A stretch of DNA of 64,000 nt from a bacterium (GTDB lineage: Bacteria; Patescibacteriota; Minisyncoccia; UBA6257; WO2-44-18), in assembly GCA_030646995.1 (NCBI GenBank), contig JAUSKF010000002.1:76092-140091 (forward strand), written 5' to 3'. Both the position numbers and the translations under genes were made by a program. The notes beneath the pieces were generated by a model, which saw only the letters and a program-made list of their open reading frames with translations, ran no database searches and was not told the origin of the DNA. This document shows positions 13,679-27,153 of the stretch, piece after piece; positions within the stretch are counted from its first letter, which is position 1, and each line of letters opens with the position of its first letter.

Positions 13679-14452
13679 ATGGATTATTTTACAAACGTTG
13701 AACAATTCAAAGAGCAGTGCGGTTACACGATTGATGGAATTTGGTATCCGCGGGTCACAAAGATTGTTGGTATAAAAAATAAACCTGCCCTACTTTTCTA
13801 TTACGCCGAAGCTCCTAGCTATGCCGCCGCGCTGGCGCAGACGAAGATCTCGGCCGAGGAAGGCACTTTAATCCACCAGACAATGGAAAAAATATTCGTG
13901 GGAGAATCTCCGGAAATTCCGGAAAGTATCGCTCCGGCCATTAAGGCCGCCAAAGAATTAATTGCCCAAAAAGGAATCCAGATAGATGCGGCGAACATTG
14001 AGCGGAGAATATTCGACCATGAGCATCGATACGCCGGCACAATCGACGGCCTCGCTCTTATCGGCGGAAAATTTGGCGTGCTGGATATTAAAACCTCGCA
14101 GGCGATTTATCGGGATTACAATCTGCAAACTTCAGCGTATATGTTCGCCCTCTGCAAAGACCCAATCCTTTCGGGATTAAATACCCGCTGGATCTTCCGT
14201 ATCGATCAGCAAAAACAATGCTACCGATGCGGCGCTTCAATGCGCCCGAAGGGAGGACGGGAAAAAATCCGTGGCGCTAAAAAAGGAATTTGCCCGAATG
14301 ACGACAGCCATGAATGGTCCCCTCTTACCGGTATTGCCGAGCTACAAGAATTTCCGCTCTGGCGCGGGGATTTTGATGCGTTCTTGGGCGCGAAAAAATT
14401 GTGGGAGTGGGAGAATGAAGTATGGCTTCAGAAGACGGGATATTTAAAGTGA
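13679..14452 (+). CDS. PD-(D/E)XK (RecB/Cas4-like) nuclease-fold protein with C-terminal zinc ribbon
   Basis: Motif order ...GTIDGLALI...VLDIKTSQ...QTSAY (D, D/ExK, QxxxY), then CxxC...C...H. Confidence 0.45.
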   Translation: MDYFTNVEQFKEQCGYTIDGIWYPRVTKIVGIKNKPALLFYYAEAPSYAAALAQTKISAEEGTLIHQTMEKIFVGESPEIPESIAPAIKAAKELIAQKGIQIDAANIERRIFDHEHRYAGTIDGLALIGGKFGVLDIKTSQAIYRDYNLQTSAYMFALCKDPILSGLNTRWIFRIDQQKQCYRCGASMRPKGGREKIRGAKKGICPNDDSHEWSPLTGIAELQEFPLWRGDFDAFLGAKKLWEWENEVWLQKTGYLK

Positions 14453-14513: not shown

Positions 14514-14723
14514 TCACTTCCAGCAGTGGATCCGGAACAGCCGGATGCGGGCATCGGACACCTCGCTGACCATCGGATCAAGAATCTGGCGTCCGATTAC
14601 GACATCCTCCCCCTTGGTCTTCGCTTCCGTCAGATCCACGGCCTTGATTGTTTCGGCCGTGGAAACAATGTTTCCCGTGGGGTTGAGAAACTCGTAACTC
14701 ACCAGGTACTCGTTGTGGGGCAT
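14514..14723 (-). CDS. small hypothetical protein (69 aa)
   Basis: Start chosen at MPHNEY, preceded by AAGGAGAG RBS and a TTGACA-17-TAAACT promoter-like sequence. Confidence 0.4.
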   Translation of the reverse strand: MPHNEYLVSYEFLNPTGNIVSTAETIKAVDLTEAKTKGEDVVIGRQILDPMVSEVSDARIRLFRIHCWK

Positions 14724-14898
14724 AGCGCTCTCCTTGTTTGAGATGCGAACTAAAAAGAACTTAACGGCACAGGGGAAGTTTAGCATAAATATCGTGTCTT
14801 GTCAAGCCCGAAAACTTTGACAGCCCGAGCTTAGCCCCTCGAATTAACCATCAAAAAGGTTTATAATCTGGAAAGCGCAACTTGATCGGGGTCCGAAA

Positions 14899-15093
14899 AT
14901 GCTCAAGAAAAAAACCTTCTACAAAAACGGTCCGAATGCCGTCAAAGAGCTGGAAGAGGCGGTGGAAGATTGGCTGGATGAAATGGACGACAAAATTGAG
15001 ATTGAAGATATTCAGGAATTTGAAGACGAAAATGCGCAGGGAAAGATTACCATCACGGTAATTTCTTATAGAGATTTACCGGCCGACGGATAA
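14899..15093 (+). CDS. small acidic hypothetical protein (64 aa)
   Basis: ORF followed directly by a terminator; Asp/Glu-rich. Confidence 0.4.
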   Translation: MLKKKTFYKNGPNAVKELEEAVEDWLDEMDDKIEIEDIQEFEDENAQGKITITVISYRDLPADG

Positions 15094-15095
15094 AA

Positions 15096-15118
15096 CTGCC
15101 CCACTAGGGCAGTTTTTA
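15096..15118 (+). terminator. rho-independent terminator
   Basis: CTGCCC-CACTA-GGGCAG + TTTTT. Confidence 0.6.
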
Positions 15119-15122
15119 ATAG

Positions 15123-15950
15123 CTAGGCAGGCCTCCCTGATTTTTCAAATATCTTCAAGAATCTTCCGTAAGCGGCTTTTATATCGGGATTAACCGCAGG
15201 ATGTTTTGAAAAGCTTTCCGCCTGTTCTTTTAACTTTCCAATCAATCTCATCGAAGACTCGACGAGCTCATCAGATTCCACTCCTCCGGCCAAGTCGCGC
15301 ATCATACCCTCTAACTCGTCGCCGTCAAAAGAAATTATAAAATACGGAAGCTTTTGATTAGCTTTTTTTACCGCTTTATATCCGGGAGCCTCTTTTGTTT
15401 CCTCCAACGCATAGCCATATTTTACTTCCGCACCGTTTAATACTTTCTGAATTATTTCTTTTTGATCCTTTAGTTTAGCGGCCTGATTAGTGGTGGCATC
15501 AATAGCGGCCAATGGTTCGCGGGTAATCGTATCAAAAATTAAATTATCTACCTTATTACCGCACATATCATCATATTCAGAAGAGCGGACGGCAATGAAT
15601 CTTCCGCCAAACCAATGACTGTTTACCCCGGAAGTCTTTGTAACTTCCAACGCCTCCCCTACCGCCTTTTCAGCTTTCTTCTCCGGACTCGCGGCTGATT
15701 CTTTTTCAAATTTTGCCTTCAATTTTTTGGTTAGCGTCAGGTCGTCTTTTATCTCTTTTATCGGCACAGGGCCCAAAAACGCCTCCATTTTGACTCGGCA
15801 GTTTTCGTCCACATCAAAACCGAACTTATTCAACTTCTCCGCCTGCATTTTTAACTCCGGAGCCAATTGCTCTAATTTCTCCTGAAAAAACTCTCCCCTG
15901 TCTAATTTCTCGGTTTTAGATTCCGGCCGGCCGAATTTCATAGTAATCAA
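15123..15950 (-). CDS. hypothetical protein (275 aa)
   Basis: Long ORF, protein-like composition, no recognised family. Confidence 0.5.
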   Translation of the reverse strand: MITMKFGRPESKTEKLDRGEFFQEKLEQLAPELKMQAEKLNKFGFDVDENCRVKMEAFLGPVPIKEIKDDLTLTKKLKAKFEKESAASPEKKAEKAVGEALEVTKTSGVNSHWFGGRFIAVRSSEYDDMCGNKVDNLIFDTITREPLAAIDATTNQAAKLKDQKEIIQKVLNGAEVKYGYALEETKEAPGYKAVKKANQKLPYFIISFDGDELEGMMRDLAGGVESDELVESSMRLIGKLKEQAESFSKHPAVNPDIKAAYGRFLKIFEKSGRPA

Positions 15951-15981
15951 ATTATAACAGAACTGCTGGTTCAGCCGCTTA

Positions 15982-16010
15982 TTGACATTTATCTAGTTTT
16001 TTGCTATATT
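15982..16010 (+). promoter_or_regulatory. sigma70-like promoter (TTGACA-17nt-TATATT) for the 199-aa gene
   Basis: Near-consensus -35/-10 with 17-nt spacer, ~45 nt upstream of AAGGAG RBS and ATG at 16059. Confidence 0.5.
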
Positions 16011-16058
16011 ACCTGAAGTTGCACATCGACATCCCTCTTCCCCTTAAGGAGTCAGGCC

Positions 16059-16658
16059 ATGAATAACGGACCTACGGTTTTCACGTCGGAACTTCTCTGG
16101 AGGTTGGCAGATATCGGAAAGCATCTCCGCGACTGCACGGAAGACATCGTGAAATTCTCCAACATTTTCGGCGATCAGTTGGTTGCCGCAGGAGAATCCG
16201 AAATCCAGCCGAAAAATTTCGTCCTAAATTGGATCATCGCCCGCCGTAATTTCGCCGGACGCACTTCCCCGGAGCGCGCCGGTGACATAGAGCAGAAAAT
16301 GCCTATGTTTGCCGAAGATCTCTGTGGTAAAGAATTTGCGGCCGAAGTCCAGTTAATTCGTTCGCAAATCTATCCACCTTTCTCTATTGAAAGAGAGCGC
16401 CAGAGGCTTTCTGCTTCTGCCGCCTGCTACCCATTCCTTCCCGAAAAACCAGTAATGGTGACGGAGGCCGAACAAGGTATTCCCCAGAATGACGACGGAT
16501 CGCGGCAGACCGACTGGGCGGGCTTCACGAAGCTCGGCGAACGCCAGCCGGAAACGCCTACGGACGAGGAGGAATTCAAACCGGCAAGCCAATTACCACC
16601 CAATTATCGATTCAAGGAGCAACTCACCGACGAACATTCTTTTGACGGAATCGAATAA
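16059..16658 (+). CDS. hypothetical protein (199 aa)
   Basis: ORF with RBS and promoter upstream, terminator downstream. Confidence 0.5.
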   Translation: MNNGPTVFTSELLWRLADIGKHLRDCTEDIVKFSNIFGDQLVAAGESEIQPKNFVLNWIIARRNFAGRTSPERAGDIEQKMPMFAEDLCGKEFAAEVQLIRSQIYPPFSIERERQRLSASAACYPFLPEKPVMVTEAEQGIPQNDDGSRQTDWAGFTKLGERQPETPTDEEEFKPASQLPPNYRFKEQLTDEHSFDGIE

Positions 16659-16671
16659 CCCACAACCCAAC

Positions 16672-16698
16672 CCGCGCACGGTGCGCGGGTTTTTTGTC
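16672..16698 (+). terminator. rho-independent terminator
   Basis: CCCGCGCA-CGG-TGCGCGGG + TTTTTT. Confidence 0.7.
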
Positions 16699-16743
16699 TT
16701 GAATTTTTGTCCTTACTACTTACTACTCGCTACTTACTACTTT

Positions 16744-19101
16744 CTACCCCCTAAGCCTCTTCAAAATATCCAACTCCACCATCTGCCGATTGCGGCCGTA
16801 AACTTCCCGGGATAGATTCTTTGCTTTATCAATCATATTCAAATTGCCTTTTGCCGGAGGGAAAATATGGATATTGAAAGGCCTGGCGGTCTGCCCTTTA
16901 ATTAAAAGCTTCGCGAAGGCGTTGAAGTTATCGATATTCAACAAGTCATTTTTCGTAAAGACCGGCTCGAATTGCTTCACCAGAAATTCCGCATCTTCGG
17001 CGCCAACACGGAAGACAATCTGCGAACCGACGTTACCAAAAACCGCGTCGCGGATTTTTTCGGTCAACTGGCCGATAAACTGATGCGCGATTACCAAATT
17101 CAAACGATATTTCCGGGCTTCCGACAAAATCGTGGCGATAGAATCAGTGGTAAAGTTTTGGAACTCATCAATATACAAAGTAAAATCTTTCCTCTCTTCC
17201 TGCGCTGTGTCTACTCTAGAAAGCGCGGCAAGCAGAAGCTTTCCAACCACGACCATACCCAATAATCCGGCGTTAATATCCCCTATCTTACCTTTGGATA
17301 AATTCACCAACAAAATCTTCCCTTCATCCATAATCTTCCGGAAATTCAACGAAGAATTTGGCTGACCGATAATCGGACGTATATAATCATTCGAAGTGAA
17401 ATTATTAAACTTAGAGGTGATGTAGGGCGTCATATTCGCCAGCGAAGCCTCTCCTCCCGCCTTGATGGCTTCCTTTTCCCAAAAATCAATCACCGTCGGG
17501 TTAGTCGCTTTTTGTAAAAGACGCTTCCGATAATCCACGTCGGTAAAAACCCGCGGCACTTCCATAATAGTGGCGTGCTCATTCGGGTCATCCATAAGCA
17601 GTAGCAAGGCGTTCCGCATATACTGCTCAAACATCGGACCCATTGTTTCCGGATTGAAGAGTTTATTAAAAATACTCTGCATCTCATTGACGATAAAAGT
17701 CTTTTCTTCGGGCCGATTCGCATCGTATTCAAGCATATTCAAACCCAAAGGATGCTGGAGATCCCCCGGATCAAAAATCACCACATCTTTAAGGCGTTCT
17801 TCCGGAATTAAACCGAGCATATGCTCAATTAAATCTCCGTGCGGATCCACCACTGCTATCCCCTTTCCCGCCTGAATATCCCCTGTGGCCATATTAAACA
17901 TCGCCGTGGATTTACCGGTACCGGTCTGACCGATAACGTAAACGTGGCGGCGACGGTCTTCATCGGTAATAAACACTGGCCTTGATTCTCCACGGAATAC
18001 ACTTTCTCCTATCAACATTCCTCTATCCGGCAAAACAGACGGCGGTGGCGCGGACTCTTTCGACTTTACCCATTTCAATCTTGGAATTTCCGTCAGAGAA
18101 GTCGGGAGGTGCCAGATGCTCGCAATCTCGTCGGCATTCAAAATCATACTTTGGCTTTCATCGAATTCACGAAAAACAAATTTAAAAACCAAATCTTTCG
18201 GGTTACGCAGTTCGGATACTTTAAATTCGTTTCTCAAAGGAGCGGCAAATTGACTAAACGAGCCGGTTAGGGCGTAGAGCAATTCCTCCGCGCGATAGGC
18301 AGACGGGGCCGAAGAGACCAGCCGCACATTCACTTCAAATAACGGCTTAGAAACCTTCTGATTCAGAAGCTTCACCGCTTCTTCGTCTATCACCACAGGT
18401 TCCGGTTTATCTTCGGGTTTGGGCGGAGCTTTAGGAAGAATTCTACTAAGCAATTTAGTGTGGAAAAGATCACCCAACTTCTCTCCCTTCTTCAAACGAC
18501 CGATATAACTGGAAATACTTTTCCTTGCGGATTCGGGTGCCGGACGCACTAAAACTTGGAGCGCTATGCCTTCACCCGCCAACTCTACTTTGGAAAAATT
18601 ACTCAACATCGGCAAAAAGGTATCAATGTTCGCCTCGGCAAAAGTCCGCACCGGAGTGGCGTAATGTTGTTTTAATTTTAGAAAAGCCGCTTTTACTGCT
18701 CCCTGCGAATTAAAGATTGTGTAATCGTCGCATTTAGTCACCTGCGCGTCGGGCCAAAGCCCTTGAACCTGTTTCGCGGCGAACTCCATTGATTCCTCCG
18801 GCACAGCGACATAGAAATGAATATCCTCGCCTACGTTATGTACCGCCACCTCCAAGGAAAACGGTATCTTCAAGCCGGACAGGAGGCCGAAAAGCTGGCT
18901 GGAAGAATTAATCTCCTGCAGCATATCTTTCTTCTCCCGCTCGTCCATTTTTTGCGCCAAGCGTACGGATAAAAGCCGCAAGCGCAAAGTCTTTAGAAAT
19001 TGCCTACGTCGATTTTTTAGAAAACTCAAAACCGCCAAAACCATTGCCACAATTAGCAATGGAATGCCAAAAGAAACTGCTAACGCAATGTATCGGTCCA
19101 T
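16744..19101 (-). CDS. membrane-anchored P-loop ATPase of the HerA/VirB4/TraG (type IV secretion / conjugative coupling-type) superfamily
   Basis: N-terminal TM; Walker A VIGQTGTGKST, VVDPHGDL, Walker B LYIDEFQNF, then RKYRLNLVIAHQFIGQL. Confidence 0.5.
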   Translation of the reverse strand: MDRYIALAVSFGIPLLIVAMVLAVLSFLKNRRRQFLKTLRLRLLSVRLAQKMDEREKKDMLQEINSSSQLFGLLSGLKIPFSLEVAVHNVGEDIHFYVAVPEESMEFAAKQVQGLWPDAQVTKCDDYTIFNSQGAVKAAFLKLKQHYATPVRTFAEANIDTFLPMLSNFSKVELAGEGIALQVLVRPAPESARKSISSYIGRLKKGEKLGDLFHTKLLSRILPKAPPKPEDKPEPVVIDEEAVKLLNQKVSKPLFEVNVRLVSSAPSAYRAEELLYALTGSFSQFAAPLRNEFKVSELRNPKDLVFKFVFREFDESQSMILNADEIASIWHLPTSLTEIPRLKWVKSKESAPPPSVLPDRGMLIGESVFRGESRPVFITDEDRRRHVYVIGQTGTGKSTAMFNMATGDIQAGKGIAVVDPHGDLIEHMLGLIPEERLKDVVIFDPGDLQHPLGLNMLEYDANRPEEKTFIVNEMQSIFNKLFNPETMGPMFEQYMRNALLLLMDDPNEHATIMEVPRVFTDVDYRKRLLQKATNPTVIDFWEKEAIKAGGEASLANMTPYITSKFNNFTSNDYIRPIIGQPNSSLNFRKIMDEGKILLVNLSKGKIGDINAGLLGMVVVGKLLLAALSRVDTAQEERKDFTLYIDEFQNFTTDSIATILSEARKYRLNLVIAHQFIGQLTEKIRDAVFGNVGSQIVFRVGAEDAEFLVKQFEPVFTKNDLLNIDNFNAFAKLLIKGQTARPFNIHIFPPAKGNLNMIDKAKNLSREVYGRNRQMVELDILKRLRG

Positions 19102-19102
19102 C

Positions 19103-19369
19103 TCAGTGATGCCTGAATGCCCTCCTTTCCCAATTGAAGGCAGCGACCTTGTGGTGATTTATAGGCGCGCTTGCGAGCGATATAAACATATCGCGAGTAT
19201 GCGTAACACCTAAATCAGCCAAGTGTCGCGCCTCCCGAAGGGTAAGGAAATTTTTATCAACTCCTTCGTTGCTCGGGCTGGAAGTAGAGTCTACATCTGC
19301 GCTCTCGCGCCTTGGAGATTGAGTAAAAATTTCTCTTATCAATTGGGAAAAAGGGTATTCAGGCATCAC
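19103..19369 (-). CDS. hypothetical protein (88 aa), translationally coupled upstream of the ATPase
   Basis: Stop/start adjacent to neighbours; operon with 19372-19788 and 16744-19101. Confidence 0.45.
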   Translation of the reverse strand: MMPEYPFSQLIREIFTQSPRRESADVDSTSSPSNEGVDKNFLTLREARHLADLGVTHTRDMFISLASAPINHHKVAAFNWERRAFRHH

Positions 19370-19371
19370 CT

Positions 19372-19788
19372 TCAGTTTAGCAAACCACGCTTCTTGAGCT
19401 CTGGGTACAACTTATCAATTAGCGCATCATGAAAGGCATCTAAGACCAACGGACCCGAAATAGCCGCTTCTTTAGCGGCATGTTGAATGCCTTTATGCCA
19501 AGCAAGGTCGAGTAATTTCTCCACTTTTAGCTTCACGTCTGCCGGCTCCGATTGCATATACTCGGGAAGGGGGCTATTGGCAGATGGCGCTGGAGTCGCA
19601 GGCTGAGGCGCTGTTGGCTGGCCGGCCGCTCCCGATGAAGAAGACATTTTTTCTTTCAGGACTGATTGCAAAGCCTGTCTCCCCTGCTCGGAAAGCCCGC
19701 GTTCTTTTATCTCGCTGGTGAGTTCTTTGATATCCTGCTCGATTATTGAATGCTCTGTTGGTTCTGCAAATTTTTCTGCCATACGCAA
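19372..19788 (-). CDS. hypothetical protein (138 aa, Pro/Ala-rich linker), first gene of the ATPase operon
   Basis: ORF; operon context. Confidence 0.45.
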   Translation of the reverse strand: MRMAEKFAEPTEHSIIEQDIKELTSEIKERGLSEQGRQALQSVLKEKMSSSSGAAGQPTAPQPATPAPSANSPLPEYMQSEPADVKLKVEKLLDLAWHKGIQHAAKEAAISGPLVLDAFHDALIDKLYPELKKRGLLN

Positions 19789-19811
19789 ATTATAAGTTTT
19801 CTAAAAATTTT

Positions 19812-19858
19812 AAGCAAAAGAAAATCCCCATAGCATCTTTGATACTATGGGGATTTTA
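19812..19858 (-). terminator. rho-independent terminator for the small membrane-protein gene
   Basis: AAATCCCCATAG...CTATGGGGATTT 12-bp stem, T-run on the minus strand. Confidence 0.65.
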
Positions 19859-20434: not shown

Positions 20435-21085
20435 TTATTTGCGCCGCATTACATAAAAATGCACCGAAGCTCCTTGCTGATTGCCACTCTTGTGAACAAT
20501 TCTTTCCAGTATCTCAAAGTAGCTTCCATACAACACCTCCACTTGCTGTGGCGATACGGCAATTTTTTTGATCCACTCCTCCACCCCCGGCATTGGATCA
20601 TCTTCGCTTTCTTTGCCGAACGTTTCAAAAAAGTAGTACCCGCCACTAGCTTGAACCTCCGCCAACTGCTCGATAAAAGAACTTTTCTCGTCGCCAATTA
20701 AAAATTGCGAACTTAAAAGGTCTAAAACAACGTCATATCTACGGGCCGCAATTTCTTTAATTTTTGCGAGGGCTGAAAAGTCTCCAACGAAAAACTCACT
20801 TTTTGCTCCCGCCGACTTAGCTTTTTCTCTTGCTTCAGTAATTGCAACTTCGGAAATATCTATGCCAACTGTTTCAAATCCATTTTTAGCGAAAAAAATT
20901 GATTTATCACCCACGCCACAACCGATATCCAACAATAATCCGCCTGATAATTTATATTTTTTTATCAGTTCTAGAAAAAAATCCGCTCTTTCGCCGCCCC
21001 AAACCGCAACCCCCTTTTTCTGCTTGTAGAAATCATTCCATATCATAACCTTGGTAACGTCCACTTTCGAAACGGCAACCAACAT
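20435..21085 (-). CDS. class I SAM-dependent methyltransferase
   Basis: Motif I LLDIGCGVGDKS; start uncertain (track ORF starts 21142, internal Met at 21085). Confidence 0.65.
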   Translation of the reverse strand: MLVAVSKVDVTKVMIWNDFYKQKKGVAVWGGERADFFLELIKKYKLSGGLLLDIGCGVGDKSIFFAKNGFETVGIDISEVAITEAREKAKSAGAKSEFFVGDFSALAKIKEIAARRYDVVLDLLSSQFLIGDEKSSFIEQLAEVQASGGYYFFETFGKESEDDPMPGVEEWIKKIAVSPQQVEVLYGSYFEILERIVHKSGNQQGASVHFYVMRRK

Positions 21086-21178
21086 GCAACTTCCTTTCAA
21101 AGTTTCTAGCAAGATTATAGCCACGATAAGGAAAAATGACAATGGCTCGGTCTAATTACTTACAAGAACTCGATCCTC

Positions 21179-21327
21179 CAAAGCGCAGGGAATAGTTTCG
21201 AGGAACATGCCGGAGGCGATTTTGCTTGGTTCGTTTGTTAATACAAACGAAAAATCGCCGAGGGAGAGGCAAATTTGCTCGCTGGAAGCAAATTATGCCG
21301 TTTCCGAGGGGCTATTCCCGGAGCCCC
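21179..21327 (-). repeat. 149-bp full-length member of the structured repeat family
   Basis: Reverse complement aligns end to end with 58299-58439 except for a different-sequence central hairpin; abuts the ychF stop codon. Confidence 0.7.
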
Positions 21328-22346
21328 TATCCGTGACGGAATTCGGTAACGTCCCCATCCTGAAACACATATTCTTTTCCTTCTAAGCGGAGCCAGCCTT
21401 TTTGCTTGGCAGAGCTCCAAGAACCGGCTTCTAATAGTTTTTGCCAGTTGATGACTTCAGCTCGGATGAATTTCTTTTCAAAATCGGTGTGAATAGCGCC
21501 GGCGGCTTGCGGAGCTTTGCTTCCCTGTCGGATCGTCCAGGCGCGAGATTCATCTGGTCCGGTAGTGAAGAAGCTCATTAGGCCGAGGATTTCATAAGCT
21601 TTTTTCACCAGCTCTGGAATTTCAGCGGCAGAAGAAAGATCAGACACCACATATCCCGCTCCCCTTTCGGCAATCTTTCCCTTCAAATCTTCAGACACAT
21701 CCTCCGGTTTGCCGTTCAATAAATAAACCTGCTTTTTCGCGGTGAGCAAATTTAGAGCGGAAACTTTTTCATTCTCCAAAGCCTCGGCAAATTCCGGAGT
21801 AGCCAAATTTTTCCCGGACTCCAATGCTTCTTTAACTTTTTTAATTGCTTCAAAATCTTTGATTGCCTGCTTTTGCGCGGGCCCGCCGGTTTTCGTGTCG
21901 CCTTCCGCTTTTTTATAAACTTTTTCTATTGAATCCAAATCTTTCAACCCCAGCTCGGCGTTGATAATCTCCATATCCCGAATTGGGTCAACCGAATTTT
22001 CCACGTGAATAATTTCACTACTCTGAAAAACACGAAGCACCATCAAGACCGCGTTGGTTTCGCGGATGTGGGTCAAAAATTTATTTCCCAAACCCTCTCC
22101 AGCACTCGCGCCCTTCACCAAACCGGCAATGTCGTAGAACTCCACTATGGCAGGAATGGTTTTCGCTGACTTACTCATTTCTGTAAGCTTGCTCAAACGC
22201 TCATCAGGAACGGTAACCACGCCTACATTCGGATCAATTGTGCAAAAGGGATAGTTGGCAATATTTACGTCATTTTTCGTGAGTATTTTAAAGAGCGTGG
22301 ACTTCCCCACGTTCGGCATCCCCACGATTCCGATAGATAATTTCAT
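21327..22346 (-). CDS. ychF: redox-regulated ATPase YchF (Obg-like GTPase family)
   Basis: MKLSIGIVGMPNVGKSTLF...NYPFCTIDPNVG; start set at the internal Met. Confidence 0.85.
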   Translation of the reverse strand: MKLSIGIVGMPNVGKSTLFKILTKNDVNIANYPFCTIDPNVGVVTVPDERLSKLTEMSKSAKTIPAIVEFYDIAGLVKGASAGEGLGNKFLTHIRETNAVLMVLRVFQSSEIIHVENSVDPIRDMEIINAELGLKDLDSIEKVYKKAEGDTKTGGPAQKQAIKDFEAIKKVKEALESGKNLATPEFAEALENEKVSALNLLTAKKQVYLLNGKPEDVSEDLKGKIAERGAGYVVSDLSSAAEIPELVKKAYEILGLMSFFTTGPDESRAWTIRQGSKAPQAAGAIHTDFEKKFIRAEVINWQKLLEAGSWSSAKQKGWLRLEGKEYVFQDGDVTEFRHG

Positions 22347-22419
22347 TCGCTTGATTATAGCCGATTTCAGTGGCAAAATAAAGCACGTTCGTTGAAAACT
22401 ACAAAGAACAGGAGGCGGG

Positions 22420-23532
22420 ATGAAACGAATCGTTCTGACTGGCGGACCTTGCGGTGGAAAAACCACAGGGAAAGAATATGTACGGGAAAAGCTGTTGAAT
22501 TATGGCCGCTCCCCTATCTTCGTTCCGGAGGTGGCAACACTAATCATTGGGTGCGGATTGAATCCTGGAGAACTGTCTCCGGAACAATATTTCGAATTCC
22601 AAAAACTTATCTTCAGCACCCAAATGAAATTTGAGGATGATATTTTCCTCAAAGCAGTAGAGATTAAAGCATCAAAAAAACCGATGATTATAATGGATCG
22701 GGGATTGATGGATGCCAAGGCTTATATGACTCCGGAAATGTTTGAGGCAGTGCTGAAAGATCACGGAATGGACGAAGTAGAGGCGCGGGATAAGCGTTAT
22801 GATGGCGTATTTCATTTGTCTACTGTAGCTGATGGCAAGCCAGAACTTTATAGTCAGGCAAATAATCCCTCCCGATTGGAAAAAACCCCGGAAGAAGCGG
22901 TATCTGCCGATCACAAGACGCGCAATGCCTGGCTTGGCCATCCGCATTTGCGAGTCATCGACAATTCCACAGACTTTGATCAGAAGATGAATCGTCTGTT
23001 GAACGAAATTCGGAGGTTGCTGGGAGATCCGGTTGCAATCGAAACCGAACGCAGTTTCGTGGTTCACGGAGGATTTCAGCTTCAGAAAATTCCTATTCCG
23101 TTCAAAAAAATCCACATCGAACAAGTTTATCTGAAGGGGAAAGCGGGAGAAGAAAGCCGGATACGCAGACGCAGTCAGGAAGATGCCGGTTCCGTCTACT
23201 ACGAAACCAGGAAACTGCCGGCCATTTCCGCCGCTTCTCGGCCGGAAAATGAATGGCAAATCTCCGCGAGGGAATACGCCAGCAAGCTTAGCTTGGCGAG
23301 TCCGGACCACGACATTGTCCGGAAAAATCGCTTCTGCTTCTTGTACAAAAATCAGTACTTTGAACTTGATAGGATTTTGGAACCGAAGCGACTATTTGGA
23401 CTCGTGCGCTTGGAAATTGAACTCACCGAAGAGAACGATAAGGTGGAAATTCCCGACTGGCTCGGGAAAGTCGAGGAAGTAACCGGCAATCCGAAGTGGA
23501 GCAACTACGAACTGTCCCGAAGGCCGAAGTAA
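22420..23532 (+). CDS. fusion protein: N-terminal P-loop nucleoside/nucleotide-kinase-like domain + C-terminal CYTH (triphosphate tunnel) domain
   Basis: IVLTGGPCGGKTT Walker A; C-terminal IETERSFVV...LEIELTE matches the CYTH ExExK start and closing acidic strands. Confidence 0.5.
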   Translation: MKRIVLTGGPCGGKTTGKEYVREKLLNYGRSPIFVPEVATLIIGCGLNPGELSPEQYFEFQKLIFSTQMKFEDDIFLKAVEIKASKKPMIIMDRGLMDAKAYMTPEMFEAVLKDHGMDEVEARDKRYDGVFHLSTVADGKPELYSQANNPSRLEKTPEEAVSADHKTRNAWLGHPHLRVIDNSTDFDQKMNRLLNEIRRLLGDPVAIETERSFVVHGGFQLQKIPIPFKKIHIEQVYLKGKAGEESRIRRRSQEDAGSVYYETRKLPAISAASRPENEWQISAREYASKLSLASPDHDIVRKNRFCFLYKNQYFELDRILEPKRLFGLVRLEIELTEENDKVEIPDWLGKVEEVTGNPKWSNYELSRRPK

Positions 23533-23540
23533 AAAAACAA

Positions 23541-23566
23541 CCCCCTCATTGAGGGGGTTTTTGTTG
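23541..23566 (+). terminator. rho-independent terminator
   Basis: CCCCCTC-ATT-GAGGGGG + TTTTTGTT. Confidence 0.7.
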
Positions 23567-23629
23567 CCAAAGCTATTTTTTTCTGGTAAAATAACTCCGG
23601 TTACTTTTACAAGAAAAGAGGAGGCTAGA

Positions 23630-24910
23630 ATGAACCGCGCAGTAATCGTGGACGGAGTACGAACTCCTTTTATGAAGGCGGGCTCGCTGACGAGTCTGCG
23701 GGCAACTACTCTGGGATGCGACGTAATCGAACATTTGCATCTGAATCTTCATGGGTTCCGGCTCGAGGACATTGATTTGGTAATTGGCGCCAACGTCGGC
23801 AACCAAGTTCTCCCCCCCGACGGTTCTAATCTGACCCGCCTGATTGCCTTAAAAGCAGGGATTCCAATAAAAGTTCCGGCTTTTACGGTAAATATCAATT
23901 GCGCTAGCGGCCTTCATGCCATTTTGACAGCGGTGAAAGAGGTGGAGCTGGGTCTGGCGAATTGCGTATTGGTGGTAGCGGTAGAAGTAATGTCGGATTA
24001 CACCGCCGCCTACAGCCGTAAACAGCGGCAGAAATTCGCTAATCTCCTGACAGCATCGAGAAGTAAATCGCTTTTGAAAAAGCTTTCATCCACCGCTTCA
24101 GCGCTTGTGAAAGTAAAGATTATGAAGCATGACCCGCAGTGGATGATTAAACTCGGTTTGACCGATCCGTCCTGTAATTTGAGTATGGATAAGGTTTCCG
24201 ACAAGATTGCCGAGAAATACAAAATTTCCCGAGAAGAGCTGGATCTCTATGCTCTGGAGTCTCACCGAAGAGCAAATAATGCATCAGATCGTTTGCGCGG
24301 AGAAATGTGTTCATTCACCCTGAATGGAAAAAAAGAGCTGCCGTGGTTCTATGATGACGGCGTTCGGCCAAATCAGACTTTGGCGGCACTCGCGAAATTG
24401 AAACCGCTGAATGAAGGCGGGGTCACGACCGCAGGAAATTCCTCCCAGATCACTGACGGCGCCGTGGCATTCCTAATCGCCAACAAAGAATGGGCAGCAG
24501 CAAGAAAGCTTCCTGTGCTAGCCGCGATGAGTTCTAAAAATTCTGCGGCCTGCGGCTGTGAACCCTCGATGATGGGTCTCGGGCCGGTCGGCGCTATCTC
24601 TAAGTTGAGGGCGCAGGGTTGGACCAAGATGAGTGATTTCTCTGTTGTGGAGACCAATGAAGCTTTCGCTTCTGTGGTGCTCGCTCAGTCGAAGATGCTC
24701 AAAGAGATTGGAATGGGTCCGCTTGATTGGGATCGCACCAACGTAAATGGCGGCGCGATCGCTATCGGCCATCCGATCTCCGCAAGTGGTGCCAGACTGG
24801 TGTTGACCTGCGCGAAAGAACTTCAGCGACGCAATCAGCAATATGGCCTCGTGACACTTTGTGTCGGTGGCGGCCAGGGTGTCGCGGCAGTGATTGAAAA
24901 CAATGAGTAG
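23630..24910 (+). CDS. fadA: acetyl-CoA C-acyltransferase / 3-ketoacyl-CoA thiolase (FadA-type)
   Basis: Thiolase N-terminus VIVDGVRTPF, active-site region NINCASGL, C-terminal NVNGGAIAIGHP and CVGGGQG; GAGGAGG RBS. Confidence 0.8.
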   Translation: MNRAVIVDGVRTPFMKAGSLTSLRATTLGCDVIEHLHLNLHGFRLEDIDLVIGANVGNQVLPPDGSNLTRLIALKAGIPIKVPAFTVNINCASGLHAILTAVKEVELGLANCVLVVAVEVMSDYTAAYSRKQRQKFANLLTASRSKSLLKKLSSTASALVKVKIMKHDPQWMIKLGLTDPSCNLSMDKVSDKIAEKYKISREELDLYALESHRRANNASDRLRGEMCSFTLNGKKELPWFYDDGVRPNQTLAALAKLKPLNEGGVTTAGNSSQITDGAVAFLIANKEWAAARKLPVLAAMSSKNSAACGCEPSMMGLGPVGAISKLRAQGWTKMSDFSVVETNEAFASVVLAQSKMLKEIGMGPLDWDRTNVNGGAIAIGHPISASGARLVLTCAKELQRRNQQYGLVTLCVGGGQGVAAVIENNE

Positions 24911-24916
24911 CCCCAT

Positions 24917-24951
24917 CCCCGTGTTCAACGCGTTGAACACGGGGATTTTTT
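24917..24951 (+). terminator. rho-independent terminator, member of the CAACGCGTTG hairpin family
   Basis: CCCCGTGTTCAACGCGTTGAACACGGGG perfect 28-nt palindrome + TTTTTT. Confidence 0.75.
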
Positions 24952-24953
24952 AT

Positions 24954-24989
24954 ATAACACTTATGTCCTGGTCAGGATATAAGTGTTAT
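24954..24989. promoter_or_regulatory. 36-bp near-perfect palindrome (candidate operator) between fadA terminator and fadB start
   Basis: ATAACACTTAT-GTCCTGGTCAGGAT-ATAAGTGTTAT, nested inner palindrome TCCTG..CAGGA. Confidence 0.4.
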
Positions 24990-25064
24990 ATTTTCATTCT
25001 TGATTTTTCGTTGAGTTCCTGTTATTTTAAGTTCGGTTCGTTCACAAACGAAAGGGAGAAAATA

Positions 25065-27080
25065 ATGAGTAAGTTCTGGAAATGTTCGACCGACGAAGAA
25101 GGAAATATGGTTGCCGAGCTTGATCTCGGACCGGATGAAAAGCAAAACCTTTTGCGGGCGGAAGTTCTGAAGGAATTGAACGTCATTTTGTCTACGAACA
25201 ACCCGAAGTGTCTGATTATCACGACTGCCAAGCCGCACAGTTTCTGCGCGGGCGCGGATGTCGGAGAAATCAACGCTTTGGCGAACGGGAAACAGGAACA
25301 TCTGGTAGCAGCTCTCGAGAGTATGCATGCGCTTCTGCTGAAGATTCGCAATTCCTCTTATCCAATCGTGGCCGCGACTTCCGGAGAATGTCTGGGGGGC
25401 GGAACCGAACTAGTACTCGCCTGCCACAAGCGCATTGCCGCAAGACACCCTAAGACGCGCTTCGGCTTGCCTGAAGTGATGCTGGGAGTGATTCCCGGTT
25501 TCGGTGGAACACAGCTGTTGCCAAAGTTGGTCGGAGTCCGGAAAGCAATGGAAGTGATTGTTGGCCAGAGGAAGCTCTCGGCTGATGATGCTCTCAAATG
25601 CGGATTAGTGGACAAAGTTGTGATTCCGGAACTGCTAATCGTGGAGGCAAAAAAAATTGCGTTTGAAGAAACGGAACGTAAGAAACTTTCGTGGGTAGAC
25701 AGAATCGGCGCCGTTCGTGATTTCGTGATGAGAATGGCAAAAAAGCAGACTCTGAAAGCCACGAAAGGTGTCTACCCTGCTCCGATGAAAGCCATCGAAG
25801 CAATCGATTTCAGCGACGCCAATCTGGAAGACGGTTTGGCCCGTGAAGGCCAACTCTTCCTCGAATGCGCCGCGACGATGGAGTCCGCCAGCTTGCGGGA
25901 TATTTTTCTGAAACAGCGCGAGGCAAAATCCAAAGATTGGATTGGTGTCAATCCGCCATCCGCCCATTCTGGCGGAGGCGGAACTCCTCCGGAAAAAGTA
26001 CTTATGCTCGGTGCCGGCGTAATGGGACGCGCAATCGCTTACGCCGTTCTGGCGGGAGGCGTGAGGGTGAACCTGCACGATATGAGTTCAAAAGCGATTC
26101 ACGAAGCGGTATTGTTCATCGAAGGACAGCTCGCTAAAGAAGTCAAAAAGAGCAAGCTCTCGCTTGAGAAAGCGCAGGGCATGCGCGATCGGCTGATTGT
26201 CAGCTACGGCGATGAGCCGACGATCGATGGCGTGGATTTCGTGATTGAGGCGATCGTGGAAGATCTGACCATCAAGCCGCGGGTTCTAGCCGAGCTGGAA
26301 AAGAAACTTCCGGAGAATGCGGTCATCGCCACCAACACTTCTTCGCTCCTGCCGAGCGATATTGCCGCTCCCCTGACTCGCAAAGACAAGTTCTGCGCGA
26401 TGCACTTCTTCAACCCGGCCCACAAAATGGACCTGGTAGAGATCGTTGGCACGGCGGAAACTTCCAAAGAAACTCTGGCAAAAACGCTGGCGCTCATCAA
26501 AGCGATGGGTAAGACCCCGATCCTTTTGGATAAGGAATGCGCCGGCTTGCTGGTGAATCGAGTACTGGTGCGTGGAATGGCTAAGGCGCTTGATTGTCTA
26601 TTGTCGGGAGAAGATCCTTGGGAAATAGACATGGCGCTCGAAGGGGCCGGAATGGTTATGGGTCCGTTCAAAACCATCGACCTCGTCGGCTTCGACATTG
26701 CCTACCACGTGATGAAGATGATGGGCCACTACTATCCGGAGATTTACGGGAAAACAGAAGTCGGCAATCTGGAGCTGCACAAGTTTAAGGACATACTCGG
26801 TCAGAAAACCGGTAAAGGTTTCTATGTCTGGGAGAACAACAAAGCCGTAAAGCCCAACAAGGAAATTTTGAAGAAGTTCGGCTGGGAGTTGTTCCCACAT
26901 GACAAAGAAATCGGAGCATTGGACTGCTGTCATTTGATCCGCAAAGAAATGAACGAAGAAGCGATGGCGCTCGTTAGCGAACGCATCTGCTCCGATCCGA
27001 ATATGATTGACCTCTCGCTGGTACTGGGTGCCGGACTCTTCCCGAACCGGCGCGGACTGCTGAAAAATCCGATCATCTAA
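25065..27080 (+). CDS. fadB: multifunctional fatty-acid oxidation protein (enoyl-CoA hydratase + 3-hydroxyacyl-CoA dehydrogenase, FadB/FadJ-like)
   Basis: N-terminal crotonase fold, then GAGVMGRAIA Rossmann NAD site, 3HCDH C-terminal domain; AAAGGGAG RBS. Confidence 0.8.
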   Translation: MSKFWKCSTDEEGNMVAELDLGPDEKQNLLRAEVLKELNVILSTNNPKCLIITTAKPHSFCAGADVGEINALANGKQEHLVAALESMHALLLKIRNSSYPIVAATSGECLGGGTELVLACHKRIAARHPKTRFGLPEVMLGVIPGFGGTQLLPKLVGVRKAMEVIVGQRKLSADDALKCGLVDKVVIPELLIVEAKKIAFEETERKKLSWVDRIGAVRDFVMRMAKKQTLKATKGVYPAPMKAIEAIDFSDANLEDGLAREGQLFLECAATMESASLRDIFLKQREAKSKDWIGVNPPSAHSGGGGTPPEKVLMLGAGVMGRAIAYAVLAGGVRVNLHDMSSKAIHEAVLFIEGQLAKEVKKSKLSLEKAQGMRDRLIVSYGDEPTIDGVDFVIEAIVEDLTIKPRVLAELEKKLPENAVIATNTSSLLPSDIAAPLTRKDKFCAMHFFNPAHKMDLVEIVGTAETSKETLAKTLALIKAMGKTPILLDKECAGLLVNRVLVRGMAKALDCLLSGEDPWEIDMALEGAGMVMGPFKTIDLVGFDIAYHVMKMMGHYYPEIYGKTEVGNLELHKFKDILGQKTGKGFYVWENNKAVKPNKEILKKFGWELFPHDKEIGALDCCHLIRKEMNEEAMALVSERICSDPNMIDLSLVLGAGLFPNRRGLLKNPII

Positions 27081-27089
27081 TAACCTCAA

Positions 27090-27116
27090 GCCCCCTTTTC
27101 AAAGGGGGTTTTTTGT
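27090..27116 (+). terminator. rho-independent terminator
   Basis: CCCCCTT-TTCAA-AGGGGG + TTTTTTGTTTT. Confidence 0.7.
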
Positions 27117-27153
27117 TTTAAAATAGCTTCGGTTCCTTAATAAGGAGAAAGAC

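Follow-up and report, generated by a model that had tools for sequence, protein, structure and literature searches.

The coupling proteins VirD4, TrwB, TraD and TraG (T4CPs) combine an N-terminal membrane anchor with a RecA-like nucleotide-binding domain (NBD) that contains Walker A and B motifs, a helical insertion and a C-terminal ...AHQ...GQL block. The all-alpha domain is variable in canonical T4CPs. Small proteins accompany some of these motors, such as TrwA, whose 121-aa gene lies directly upstream of trwB in R388 (sequence NC_028464), CagZ with Cagbeta (PDB 8dol) and the adaptors of DotL (PDB 6sz9). VirB4/TrwK of R388 (PDB 8rtd, 7o42) consists of an N-domain followed by a C-terminal ATPase, and HerA of the HerA-NurA pair, the HerA-based defence systems and FtsK/SpoIIIE belong to the same ATPase superfamily.

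Patescibacteria are ultra-small bacteria that account for a large part of bacterial diversity and subsist on material drawn from host cells. Their type IV secretion system (T4SS) is essential in the one species tested, and its cluster has no recognisable coupling protein. According to a survey of T4CP homologues (Quinonero-Coronel et al., 2025, PMC12102498), nearly every Patescibacteria genome has an orphan T4CP-like gene: homologues occur in 2,918 of 3,035 genomes (96%), VirB4 is less widespread (80%), and only 148 of the 5,713 homologues are located near virB4. The survey left the role of the orphans open and stated that exaptation cannot be ruled out; its accessible text makes no mention of DUF8128, an upstream partner, fusions or the fold. 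The number of homologues given there, about two per genome, indicates that a second paralogous family probably exists. The orphan VirD4-type homologues of the survey are very probably the same gene set as the ATPase described here, whose relatives are named [quoted passage not shown] by NCBI.

Layout and family of the ATPase

The window, a 64-kb stretch of a patescibacterial genome, contains three minus-strand ORFs of 785, 88 and 138 aa separated by gaps of 1–2 nt. Their coordinates agree with those in a first-pass annotation made from the DNA alone. The features of the region are as follows.

13679-14452, weak PD-(D/E)XK protein, 257 aa
16669-16691, GC-rich hairpin in the gap that separates the ATPase gene from the convergent ORF 16059-16658
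16744-19101, minus strand, ATPase gene (ORF of 785 aa)
16852-18018, minus strand, RecA-like NBD, residues ~362-750
17065-17115, minus strand, C-terminal motif block RKYRLNLVIAHQFIGQL, residues 663-679
17152-17169, minus strand, Walker B motif DEFQNF, residues 645-650
17392-17709, minus strand, all-helical insertion, residues ~465-570 (DSSP helices H465-569 of the AF2 model)
within the ATPase gene, VVDPHGDL motif, residues 417-424
17905-17931, minus strand, Walker A motif GQTGTGKST, residues 391-399
18082-18984, minus strand, DUF8128 (PF26449), predicted cytoplasmic alpha/beta N-domain, residues ~40-340
19021-19089, minus strand, predicted TM helix, residues 5-27, N-out/C-in
19103-19369, minus strand, 88-aa ORF with a GTG start
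19104-19369, minus strand, structured palindromic insertion of ~264 nt between the partner and ATPase genes
19372-19788, minus strand, small partner gene as listed (138 aa, TTG start)
19372-19782, minus strand, likely real extent of the partner gene (136 aa from the ATG at 19782)
19789-19794, minus strand, TATAAT box, 6 nt upstream of the ATG of the partner
20435-21142, SAM-dependent methyltransferase

The order proposed by the first-pass annotation, an N-terminal TM helix, a domain of ~350 aa and then an ATPase, was borne out, and GQTGTGKST, VVDPHGDL, DEFQNF and the C-terminal block are all located where it had placed them. The TM helix was assigned from Kyte-Doolittle windows of up to 2.7 and from helix H2-39 of the AF2 model, whose pLDDT is 79.8. 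Residues 28-45 include seven Lys/Arg, compared with "MDRY" ahead of the helix. The ~350 aa between the TM helix and the ATPase had no match in the Pfam set searched, which was without the PF26449 model; the DUF8128 assignment of the window protein comes via its homologues, with PF26449 present on all 120 homologues listed (precomputed Pfam annotation). Using the N-domain of the window protein as the query, 1,195 DUF8128 representative clusters were retrieved. The DUF8128 region is modelled mostly with pLDDT values of 85–95 and is composed of beta-alpha-beta-beta-alpha-beta units.

The Walker A, Walker B and RKY...HQ motifs are invariant across 50 homologues, and the mean column identity is 69%. 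The ATPase is intact, with its catalytic motifs kept, and this conservation points to an active enzyme under selection. In the AF2 model, the helical insertion sits where coupling proteins have their all-alpha domain. Unlike that of the canonical proteins, it is unusually conserved, with many invariant columns among the 50 homologues (NMLEY and TSKFNNF..NDY.RPIIGQ). Further differences from VirD4, TrwB, TraD and TraG are the single TM helix in place of the usual two and the ~300-aa DUF8128 between the anchor and the NBD.

Comparison with family models placed the ATPase among the T4CPs. The scores exceeded the gathering cut-offs for Pfam T4SS-DNA_transf (35.5 bits against 20.1, E = 7e-9), TrwB_AAD_bind (26 against 20.5, a match that covers the P-loop part only), TraG-D_C (23.5 against 22) and DUF87, and both TrwB_AAD_bind and TraG-D_C matched 50 of 50 homologues. 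An hhalign comparison with TrwB gave a probability of 95.7% (E = 1e-8) for residues 379-683 (TrwB 117-393), and a profile search of the PDB returned TrwB (4e-7) and DotL. The weak matches to HerA_C (14 bits against a Pfam cut-off of 22; NCBIfam HerA, 19 against 970), FtsK_SpoIIIE (14.3 against 24, P-loop region only) and NCBIfam VirB4_CagE (19.6 against 643) were all below the cut-offs. The best of the NCBIfam TraD, VirD4-like and CedD equivalogs, SXT_TraD (43.5 bits against 366) and CD1115 VirD4-like (42.9 against 250), fall so far short of their curated cut-offs that the ATPase is no equivalog of any named T4CP. We assign it to the VirD4/TrwB-type (T4CP-like) motors, in the branch of the HerA/FtsK superfamily that holds the T4SS ATPases; the first-pass annotation had named the class correctly as coupling/VirB4/HerA-type.

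Foldseek matches of the ATPase model comprised VirB4, DotL, HerA, TrwB and Cagbeta (E = 1e-12 to 1e-7), with TM-scores of 0.60–0.62 against TrwB when normalised to the target. The best were full-length TrwK/VirB4 chains of similar size (E = 1e-12), with alignments of ~900 columns over both domains, while ATPase-only targets were weaker (1e-8 for T4CPs and 4.5e-6 for a lone VirB4 C-domain). This ranking, together with the 785-aa size and the two-domain layout, would suit a divergent VirB4 instead of a coupling protein, namely a VirB3-VirB4-like assembly ATPase that carries an N-terminal TM helix. We consider such an identity quite unlikely. The hhalign comparison of the family profile with TrwK aligned the Walker A loop alone, with a probability of 2.8%, and homology of DUF8128 to the VirB4 N-domain by sequence was rejected at a profile-profile probability of 0.2% (169 DUF8128 sequences and 14 plasmid VirB4 N-domains). 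Moreover, T4CP motifs (TraG-D_C, QxxxQL) and T4CP HMMs match the protein, and Patescibacteria have a separate VirB4 clade of their own, whose genes cluster with VirB3, VirB6 and VirB8; none of these was found beside the ATPase in 82 loci or among the window ORFs. A kinship between DUF8128 and the VirB4 N-domain survives only as a lead from the Foldseek comparison of models. The VirB4-like overall fold offers a possible window on how VirB4 and the coupling proteins diverged.

The small partner protein

The first-pass annotation had coupled two small proteins to the ATPase in a three-gene operon. The 138-aa protein is a real and conserved partner, whereas the 88-aa ORF lies inside the ~264-bp insertion described below, which is absent from two relatives. 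In 65 of 83 loci (clustering gives 66 of 82), the partner gene, ~132 aa across the family, lies directly upstream of the ATPase gene in the same orientation, and in the 82 loci it is the sole gene consistently linked to the ATPase gene. The conserved unit is two genes, encoding the partner and the ATPase. In the window, the true start of the partner gene is probably the ATG at 19782; the resulting 136-aa form is identical to a deposited protein (P0121).

The AF2 model of the partner shows N-terminal helices, a Pro/Ala-rich linker and a C-terminal three-helix bundle, and its alignment contains the invariant pattern LP.Y ... LDAFHDAL..K.Y.E...RG. It is predicted to be a soluble helical protein. 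It had no match in Pfam, NCBIfam or PADLOC, and Foldseek with its model found no structural relative among PDB chains (best E = 3). A TrwA-like identity was rejected (hhalign probability 0.2%). In its size and co-encoded position the partner resembles TrwA, CagZ and the DotL adaptors, and Cagbeta and DotL are among the Foldseek matches of the ATPase; it has no similarity to TrwA itself or to any PDB chain, and an adaptor role is suggested by analogy.

In distant relatives, the partner is fused onto the N-terminus of the ATPase in place of the TM helix (HMM E = 1e-9 and 9e-9; hhalign probability 89.5% over 124 columns). Among the best 150 representatives, a TM helix is present in 106 and missing from 16, which carry the partner domain instead. 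Membrane anchoring, and hence translocation across a membrane, is therefore not universal in the family. The two-component unit with its lineage-specific fusion, in which the anchor is interchangeable with the partner domain, adds to the orphan T4CP-like genes described so far; neither the partner nor the fusion nor the VirB4-like overall fold seems to have been reported before.

Two other upstream genes, one of 108 aa next to the fused form and one encoding a protein of ~100 aa in 21 loci, are unrelated to the partner and absent from the window. A stand-alone DUF8128 class of ~327 aa probably consists of fragments, because one member of the cluster is 766 aa long.

Genomic context and possible function

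The search for homologues returned 3,834 proteins, and the listed relatives are 59–90% identical. The ATPase is encoded by at least 593 species representatives, almost all of which carry the label Patescibacteria. It is always set among housekeeping genes, for example ychF, murC and the secY-adk-map operon. The first-pass annotation had named an FtsK-like or other housekeeping family with conserved synteny as the contrary outcome; housekeeping synteny does hold across relatives, but the family is T4CP-like and not FtsK. Its suggested search for VirB-like partners, a relaxase or a NurA-like nuclease found none in the 64-kb window or among the conserved neighbours of the 82 loci. The same neighbours included no linked VirB4, VirB6, relaxase or nuclease gene, and mating-pair-formation genes were likewise absent from both sets. 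Pfam matches on the 20 large ORFs of the window were to housekeeping genes only, with no T4SS partners. These comparisons identify the locus as a typical example of a two-gene module that is chromosomal, passed on vertically and widespread in Patescibacteria. It is unlike the VirD4-type systems in its phylum-wide vertical inheritance, its very high conservation and the absence of a linked relaxase or T4SS.

The first-pass annotation had suggested a remnant conjugative or DNA-translocation module. A T4CP-type motor normally belongs to conjugative elements, a PD-(D/E)XK gene and fast-evolving hypothetical genes are nearby, and the locus has received a small mobile element. However, this is an intact gene with high conservation and vertical inheritance in a housekeeping context, and no integrase, flanking tRNA, flanking repeats or composition anomaly was found at the locus, which also has no relaxase, VirB or other T4SS gene. 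The PD-(D/E)XK gene goes with murC, is found only in five close relatives and has no family-wide linkage to the ATPase in the 82 loci. A remnant of a conjugative or integrative element is very improbable on this evidence.

The other suggestion, a HerA-like component of anti-phage defence, is equally hard to credit. Weak PADLOC matches to mad8 (3e-14) and HerA models, Foldseek matches to HerA complexes and the Cas4-like PD-(D/E)XK gene 2.3 kb away would fit it, but the PADLOC and HerA matches are confined to the shared P-loop core and T4CP-specific models outscore the HerA models. No NurA, Sir2, DUF4297 or mad partner was found in the 82 loci, in contrast to the nuclease partner of HerA in HerA-NurA, and a family that is near-universal, single-copy and syntenic is not distributed as defence islands are. 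Such genes should not be annotated as conjugative relics or defence genes.

Starting from the family, domain layout, intact motifs, partner linkage and fusion, and housekeeping context established above, we propose that the module pairs a small soluble helical protein with a membrane-bound T4CP-like motor that threads a substrate, most likely to feed a T4SS (probability about 0.6 for this explanation as a whole). The second gene would encode a single-pass membrane protein in which cytoplasmic DUF8128 precedes the P-loop motor with its helical insertion. By analogy with TrwB, VirB4 and HerA, we infer that the ATPase forms a hexameric ring at the inner face of the membrane, and the partner may dock on its N-terminal side, close to the membrane, and act there as an adaptor or regulator, as small partners of other coupling proteins would suggest. 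Powered by ATP hydrolysis, the ring would recruit a polymer substrate, a nucleic acid or an unfolded protein, and thread it. It would most likely feed substrates in this way to the patescibacterial T4SS, presumably encoded at another site in the genome, and the alternative would be a T4SS-independent role in translocation or remodelling. In Southlakia epibionticum, the t4cp homologue is dispensable for epibiotic growth and the T4SS is essential, according to PMC12102498 (citing Wang 2023), which argues against an obligatory T4SS coupling role. The S. epibionticum homologue may not belong to the DUF8128 family. The wider distribution of T4CP homologues (96%) than of VirB4 (80%) and the representatives without a TM helix also count against the proposed explanation.

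One form of the alternative setting is a housekeeping motor exapted from a T4SS ATPase, which would serve for example the import or processing of host RNA or DNA, or chromosome handling. The near-universal distribution, commoner than that of VirB4, and the possibility of exaptation left by the 2025 survey (PMC12102498) are in agreement with it, as are the 82 loci without a linked T4SS gene, the fused forms without a TM helix and the conserved place beside the ribosomal/secY-adk-map operon. In addition, one locus of the fused form (L118) has cmk, adk, ndk and an RNase J-like gene nearby, Patescibacteria do not synthesise nucleotides, and uptake of host RNA has been described for one cultivated member (bioRxiv 10.64898/2026.06.21.733656). 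On the other hand, this nucleotide-gene neighbourhood was seen at a single locus, and adk normally belongs to the operon; the ATPase also has no linked gene for a nuclease, a channel protein or a partner that binds nucleic acid. A comEC knockout is viable in S. epibionticum, so DNA uptake is not essential in that species (PMC12857230). We regard a T4SS-independent motor as possible but on the unlikely side, and T4SS feeding remains the preferred reading. A more specific version, in which the partner, DUF8128 and the motor form a phylum-wide T4SS-independent machine that arose from a VirB4/coupling-protein intermediate and energises the uptake or processing of host nucleic acid (RNA or DNA), is unlikely; if true, it would supply the motor that the parasitic nucleotide economy of Patescibacteria has so far lacked.

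The inserted element and flanking signals

The 88-aa ORF spans the ~264-nt insertion, which is absent in two relatives (L005 and L006) whose ATPases are 87% and 90% identical. The insertion ends in inverted repeats of ~32 nt and folds with a dG of -119.8 (z = -9.45). Two further copies, which also fold, are located at unrelated intergenic sites, giving three copies in three contexts. Compensatory changes were observed in 22 of 100 predicted pairs, and the copies share 54–56% amino-acid identity at 78–82% DNA identity. On the terminal inverted repeats, the presence/absence polymorphism and the three known copies at different sites, the insertion is classified as a MITE-like or ERIC-like mobile hairpin element inserted in this genome. 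No clear target-site duplication was seen at the three copies, and no matching transposase or Rfam family was found. The window holds no further copies, and nhmmer over 1.2 Mb of loci recovered just the three known ones. A metagenome scan with a long pattern was empty, and the 15 matches from a scan with a short pattern covered a single arm each and did not extend into longer similarity, which is consistent with chance. The 88-aa ORF is most likely not a gene but an artefact of the inserted element, and ORFs inside small hairpin elements should not be called genes.

The first-pass annotation had also described the region from 13.7 to 21 kb as GC-richer and set off by strong terminators. Its GC content is 0.468 compared with 0.466 for the whole window, and 54 of 114 equal-sized windows are richer. 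There are two good hairpins near the ATPase region, at 16669-16691 and 19821-19857, but the six terminator-like sites in the region equal the 6.0 expected from shuffles. The former hairpin, with 10 pairs of which 7 are GC in the terminator scan, is likely a bidirectional terminator. The neighbourhood had been listed as all hypothetical proteins plus a PD-(D/E)XK nuclease; the nuclease-like gene is present, but the list missed the SAM-dependent methyltransferase.

The TATAAT box ahead of the partner gene was not flagged by a two-hexamer promoter scan and is a possible promoter of a leaderless transcript. The sequence around it, TTATAATT, is conserved in L005.

Family and fold of the ATPase

All three minus-strand open reading frames (ORFs) of the first-pass annotation were found in the window, separated by 1-2 nt. 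The features of the unit are as follows.

16700-16743, minus strand: short run of GTAGTAA-like repeats (AAAGTAGTAAGTAGCGAGTAGTAAGTAGTAAGG), between the ATPase stop codon and a terminator hairpin
16744-19101, minus strand: ATPase gene, 785 aa
19103-19369, minus strand: 88-aa ORF with a GTG start
19372-19788, minus strand: 138-aa ORF with a TTG start (partner gene)
19789-19794, minus strand: TATAAT box

The four ATPase motifs that had been claimed are located at residues 391-399, 417-424, 645-650, and 663-679. A single N-terminal TM helix was also confirmed, and the 18 residues that follow it contain 7 Lys/Arg, by which the remainder of the protein is predicted to be cytoplasmic. The AlphaFold2 model (pLDDT 79.8) is composed of four parts.

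Residues 5-27: TM helix
Residues ~40-340: alpha/beta N-domain, mostly with pLDDT 85-95
RecA-like core
Residues 465-570: all-helical insertion, in the same place as the all-alpha domain of coupling proteins

The N-domain is annotated as Pfam PF26449 (DUF8128) in the precomputed annotation of every listed homologue. In the Pfam search, residues 367-703 matched T4SS-DNA_transf (7e-9), TrwB_AAD_bind, TraG-D_C, and DUF87, all above the gathering score, while HerA_C and FtsK_SpoIIIE were below the cut-offs. The best NCBIfam matches were TraD and VirD4-like models, with scores far under the equivalog cut-offs. A PDB search using a profile of 50 homologues retrieved TrwB and DotL. With hhalign, the profile was aligned with R388 TrwB over residues 379-683 (probability 95.7%, E = 1e-8), and nothing beyond the Walker A loop was common to it and R388 TrwK/VirB4. 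The proposed assignment to the HerA/VirB4/TraG class was therefore right, as judged from the Pfam coupling-protein families and the alignment to TrwB. The 50 aligned homologues have a mean column identity of 69%, with no variation in Walker A, Walker B, or the RKY...HQ block, nor in much of the helical insertion.

A Foldseek search of the PDB with the model retrieved VirB4, DotL, HerA, TrwB, and Cagbeta. The top matches were full-length TrwK/VirB4 chains (E = 1e-12) with alignments of ~900 columns, which must take in the N-domains. For targets consisting only of the ATPase, the values were 1e-8 (T4CPs) and 4.5e-6 (VirB4 C-domain alone). Homology of DUF8128 to the VirB4 N-domain was not supported at the profile level: a DUF8128 profile showed no similarity (probability 0.2%) to a profile of the VirB4 N-domain made from 14 plasmids. 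Based on the profile comparisons, the sequence of the motor is regarded as T4CP-like, and the resemblance of the model to VirB4 in overall architecture as a structural lead only.

The upstream partner and its fusion to DUF8128 proteins

In 65 of 83 loci, the gene directly upstream of the ATPase, in the same orientation, encodes a partner of ~132 aa; 8 of the 18 loci without it have too little upstream sequence for a call. It matched nothing in Pfam, NCBIfam, or PADLOC. The invariant residues cluster in the C-terminal half (LP.Y ... LDAFHDAL..K.Y.E...RG). Its model begins with two helices of low confidence, which a disordered Pro/Ala-rich linker connects to a confidently predicted three-helix bundle; a structure search with this model found no relative. 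A TrwA-like identity was considered and dismissed, as no similarity to TrwA was detected.

The strongest new evidence on the partner is gene fusion. The partner HMM matched the N-terminus of distant-lineage DUF8128 proteins (P0262, E = 1e-9; P0334, E = 9e-9), and the hhalign comparison of its profile with the N-terminal extensions of the class without a TM helix gave a probability of 89.5% over 124 columns. The layouts of the 150 best representatives are shown below.

Domain layouts among the 150 best representatives
TM-DUF8128: 106
Partner-DUF8128, no TM helix: 16
Partner-TM-DUF8128: 1
Standard start, TM helix not detected: 3
Fragments: 24

These fusions indicate that the partner is probably part of the machine, at its N-terminal end. 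Membrane anchoring of the ATPase, as predicted from these layouts, is common, not universal. One fused gene, for a form without a TM helix, is located directly downstream of secY-adk-map and upstream of ndk (L118:3600-11461, a locus of a relative). The genes around it are cmk, adk, map, ndk, and one for an RNase J-like beta-CASP protein; such a nucleotide/RNA-metabolism neighbourhood was observed in that one locus only.

The element between the two genes

The unit had been described as a three-gene operon. In the relatives L005 and L006, whose ATPases are 87% and 90% identical, the partner and ATPase genes are 15-26 nt apart, and the window carries about 264 extra bases at this point. The operon consists of two genes, and the 88-aa ORF lies inside the inserted element, starting at the element's first base and closing at the TGA that flanks it. 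The element has inverted ends of ~32 nt, and its predicted fold is one long hairpin with branches (dG -119.8 kcal/mol, z = -9.45). A protein search with the 88-aa ORF found two relatives (54-56% identity), giving three copies of the element in related Patescibacteria.

Window 19104-19369, minus strand
L116:1191-1455
L117:553-814

The two other copies are located elsewhere: one follows a DHHA1 gene, the other precedes murG, and both are wedged between same-strand genes. The three copies thus occupy three different intergenic sites, all co-oriented with the flanking genes. They share 78-82% DNA identity and fold alike (z = -10.0 and -6.0 for the other two), with compensatory changes in 22 of 100 predicted pairs. 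A search for further copies found none beyond these three, no Rfam family matched, and no transposase was identified for the element. We conclude that the insertion is a small, structured mobile element of intergenic sites. The 88-aa ORF is most likely spurious, since its amino acid identity is well under the DNA identity, which argues against selection at the protein level. Its retention in the other copies is an ascertainment effect because they were found by protein search.

The TATAAT box is 6 nt upstream of the partner ATG and is kept in L005, suggesting that the two-gene unit may be transcribed as a leaderless mRNA. The surrounding region (13.7-21 kb) is not GC-richer as had been stated (0.468 vs 0.466 for the window; 54 of 114 equal-size windows are richer). 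As for its strong terminators, two good hairpins do flank the unit, but the number of terminator-like sites is that of shuffled sequences (6 vs 6.0).

Distribution, neighbourhood, and relation to the T4SS

The homology search with the ATPase yielded 3,834 proteins. The best 120 of these are full-length proteins with 59-90% identity, and their named sources are nearly all Patescibacteria or Parcubacteria MAGs. At least 593 stretches in species-representative genomes encode a relative, and the DUF8128 N-domain alone matched 1,195 clusters (50% identity). Source groups among the stretches listed include Wolfe-, Lipton-, Jorgensen-, Moran-, Yanofsky-, Sung-, Niyogi-, Giovannoni-, Specht-, Vogel-, and Portnoybacteria, Microgenomatus, and others. 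A few records are labelled Bdellovibrionales, Bacillota, Micavibrio, or Planctomycetales; we regard these labels as unreliable names of bins.

The ATPase is surrounded by housekeeping genes (ychF, murC, gltX, murG, ftsW, and the ribosomal/secY-adk-map operon). All-against-all ORF clustering within 5 kb in 82 loci identified the partner gene (66 of 82) as the sole consistently linked family, and no VirB4, VirB6, relaxase, integrase, or nuclease family was linked. The PD-(D/E)XK gene recurs in five close relatives only, adjoining murC, and the hypothetical genes separating it from the ATPase are fast-evolving and restricted to the closest relatives. Breadth, conservation, housekeeping neighbours, and a single linked family are typical of an ancient core gene passed on by vertical descent. 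The first-pass annotation had suggested a remnant conjugative module or a HerA-like defence component. Both are incompatible with this pattern. The former also conflicts with the lack of linked T4SS genes, relaxase, or integrase families; the latter also fails as PADLOC gave only P-loop-level matches and no nuclease family was linked in the 82 loci.

A recent survey covering 3,035 Patescibacteria genomes counts 5,713 VirD4-type T4CP homologues, which occur in 2,918 of the genomes and of which only 148 are near virB4; VirB4 occurs in 2,417 genomes (Quinonero-Coronel et al., 2025, PMC12102498). The family is hence already catalogued and counted, yet uncharacterised; no paper found in our literature search names DUF8128. 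No mention of the partner, its fusion to the ATPase, the layout of the domains, or the comparison of folds was found in the survey text available, and these appear to be new.

By homology with TrwB, VirB4, and HerA, the protein may assemble as a ring-shaped ATPase on the cytoplasmic side of the membrane, with the partner as a putative adaptor or regulator at its N-terminal end. ATP hydrolysis would then power the engagement of a polymer and its threading. The motor may feed the patescibacterial T4SS in trans, the more likely setting, or act alone. Three observations lean towards some independence of the T4SS: in the survey, T4CP homologues are more widespread than VirB4, and that of S. epibionticum is noted as not essential (PMC12102498); forms without a TM helix also exist. 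The survey authors also allow for exaptation. The T4CP ancestry of the motor leans the other way, as does the absence of a recognisable coupling protein from the T4SS cluster. In the one species tested, the T4SS was reported to be essential, and its cluster to have neither such a coupling protein nor a relaxase (Wang et al., 2023, PMC10633639). A cultivated member of the Patescibacteria is reported to take up host RNA (2026 preprint, bioRxiv 10.64898/2026.06.21.733656).

Other features of the window were observed as follows.

14514-16658: small islet of hypothetical genes, downstream of the ATPase, that are lineage-specific and evolve fast
21327-22466: longest ychF ORF (GTG at 22466), overlapping the divergent AAA_28 gene (22420-23532) by 47 nt
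23549-29139 and 46343-47944: thiolase, enoyl-CoA hydratase/3-hydroxyacyl-CoA dehydrogenase, and acyl-CoA dehydrogenase (beta-oxidation set), plus malate synthase
58459-59994 (511 aa) and 60014-61579 (521 aa): two adjoining large ORFs without a Pfam match

In the islet, the p199 product is just 28-35% identical in relatives with 82-90% identical ATPases, and p275 is present in two close relatives only. The true ychF start is probably further downstream, because its relatives are 335-356 aa long, compared with 379 aa in the window. A beta-oxidation set with malate synthase is probably unusual in a metabolically reduced Patescibacteria genome, and the beta-oxidation genes are also present in the relatives L001 and L005.
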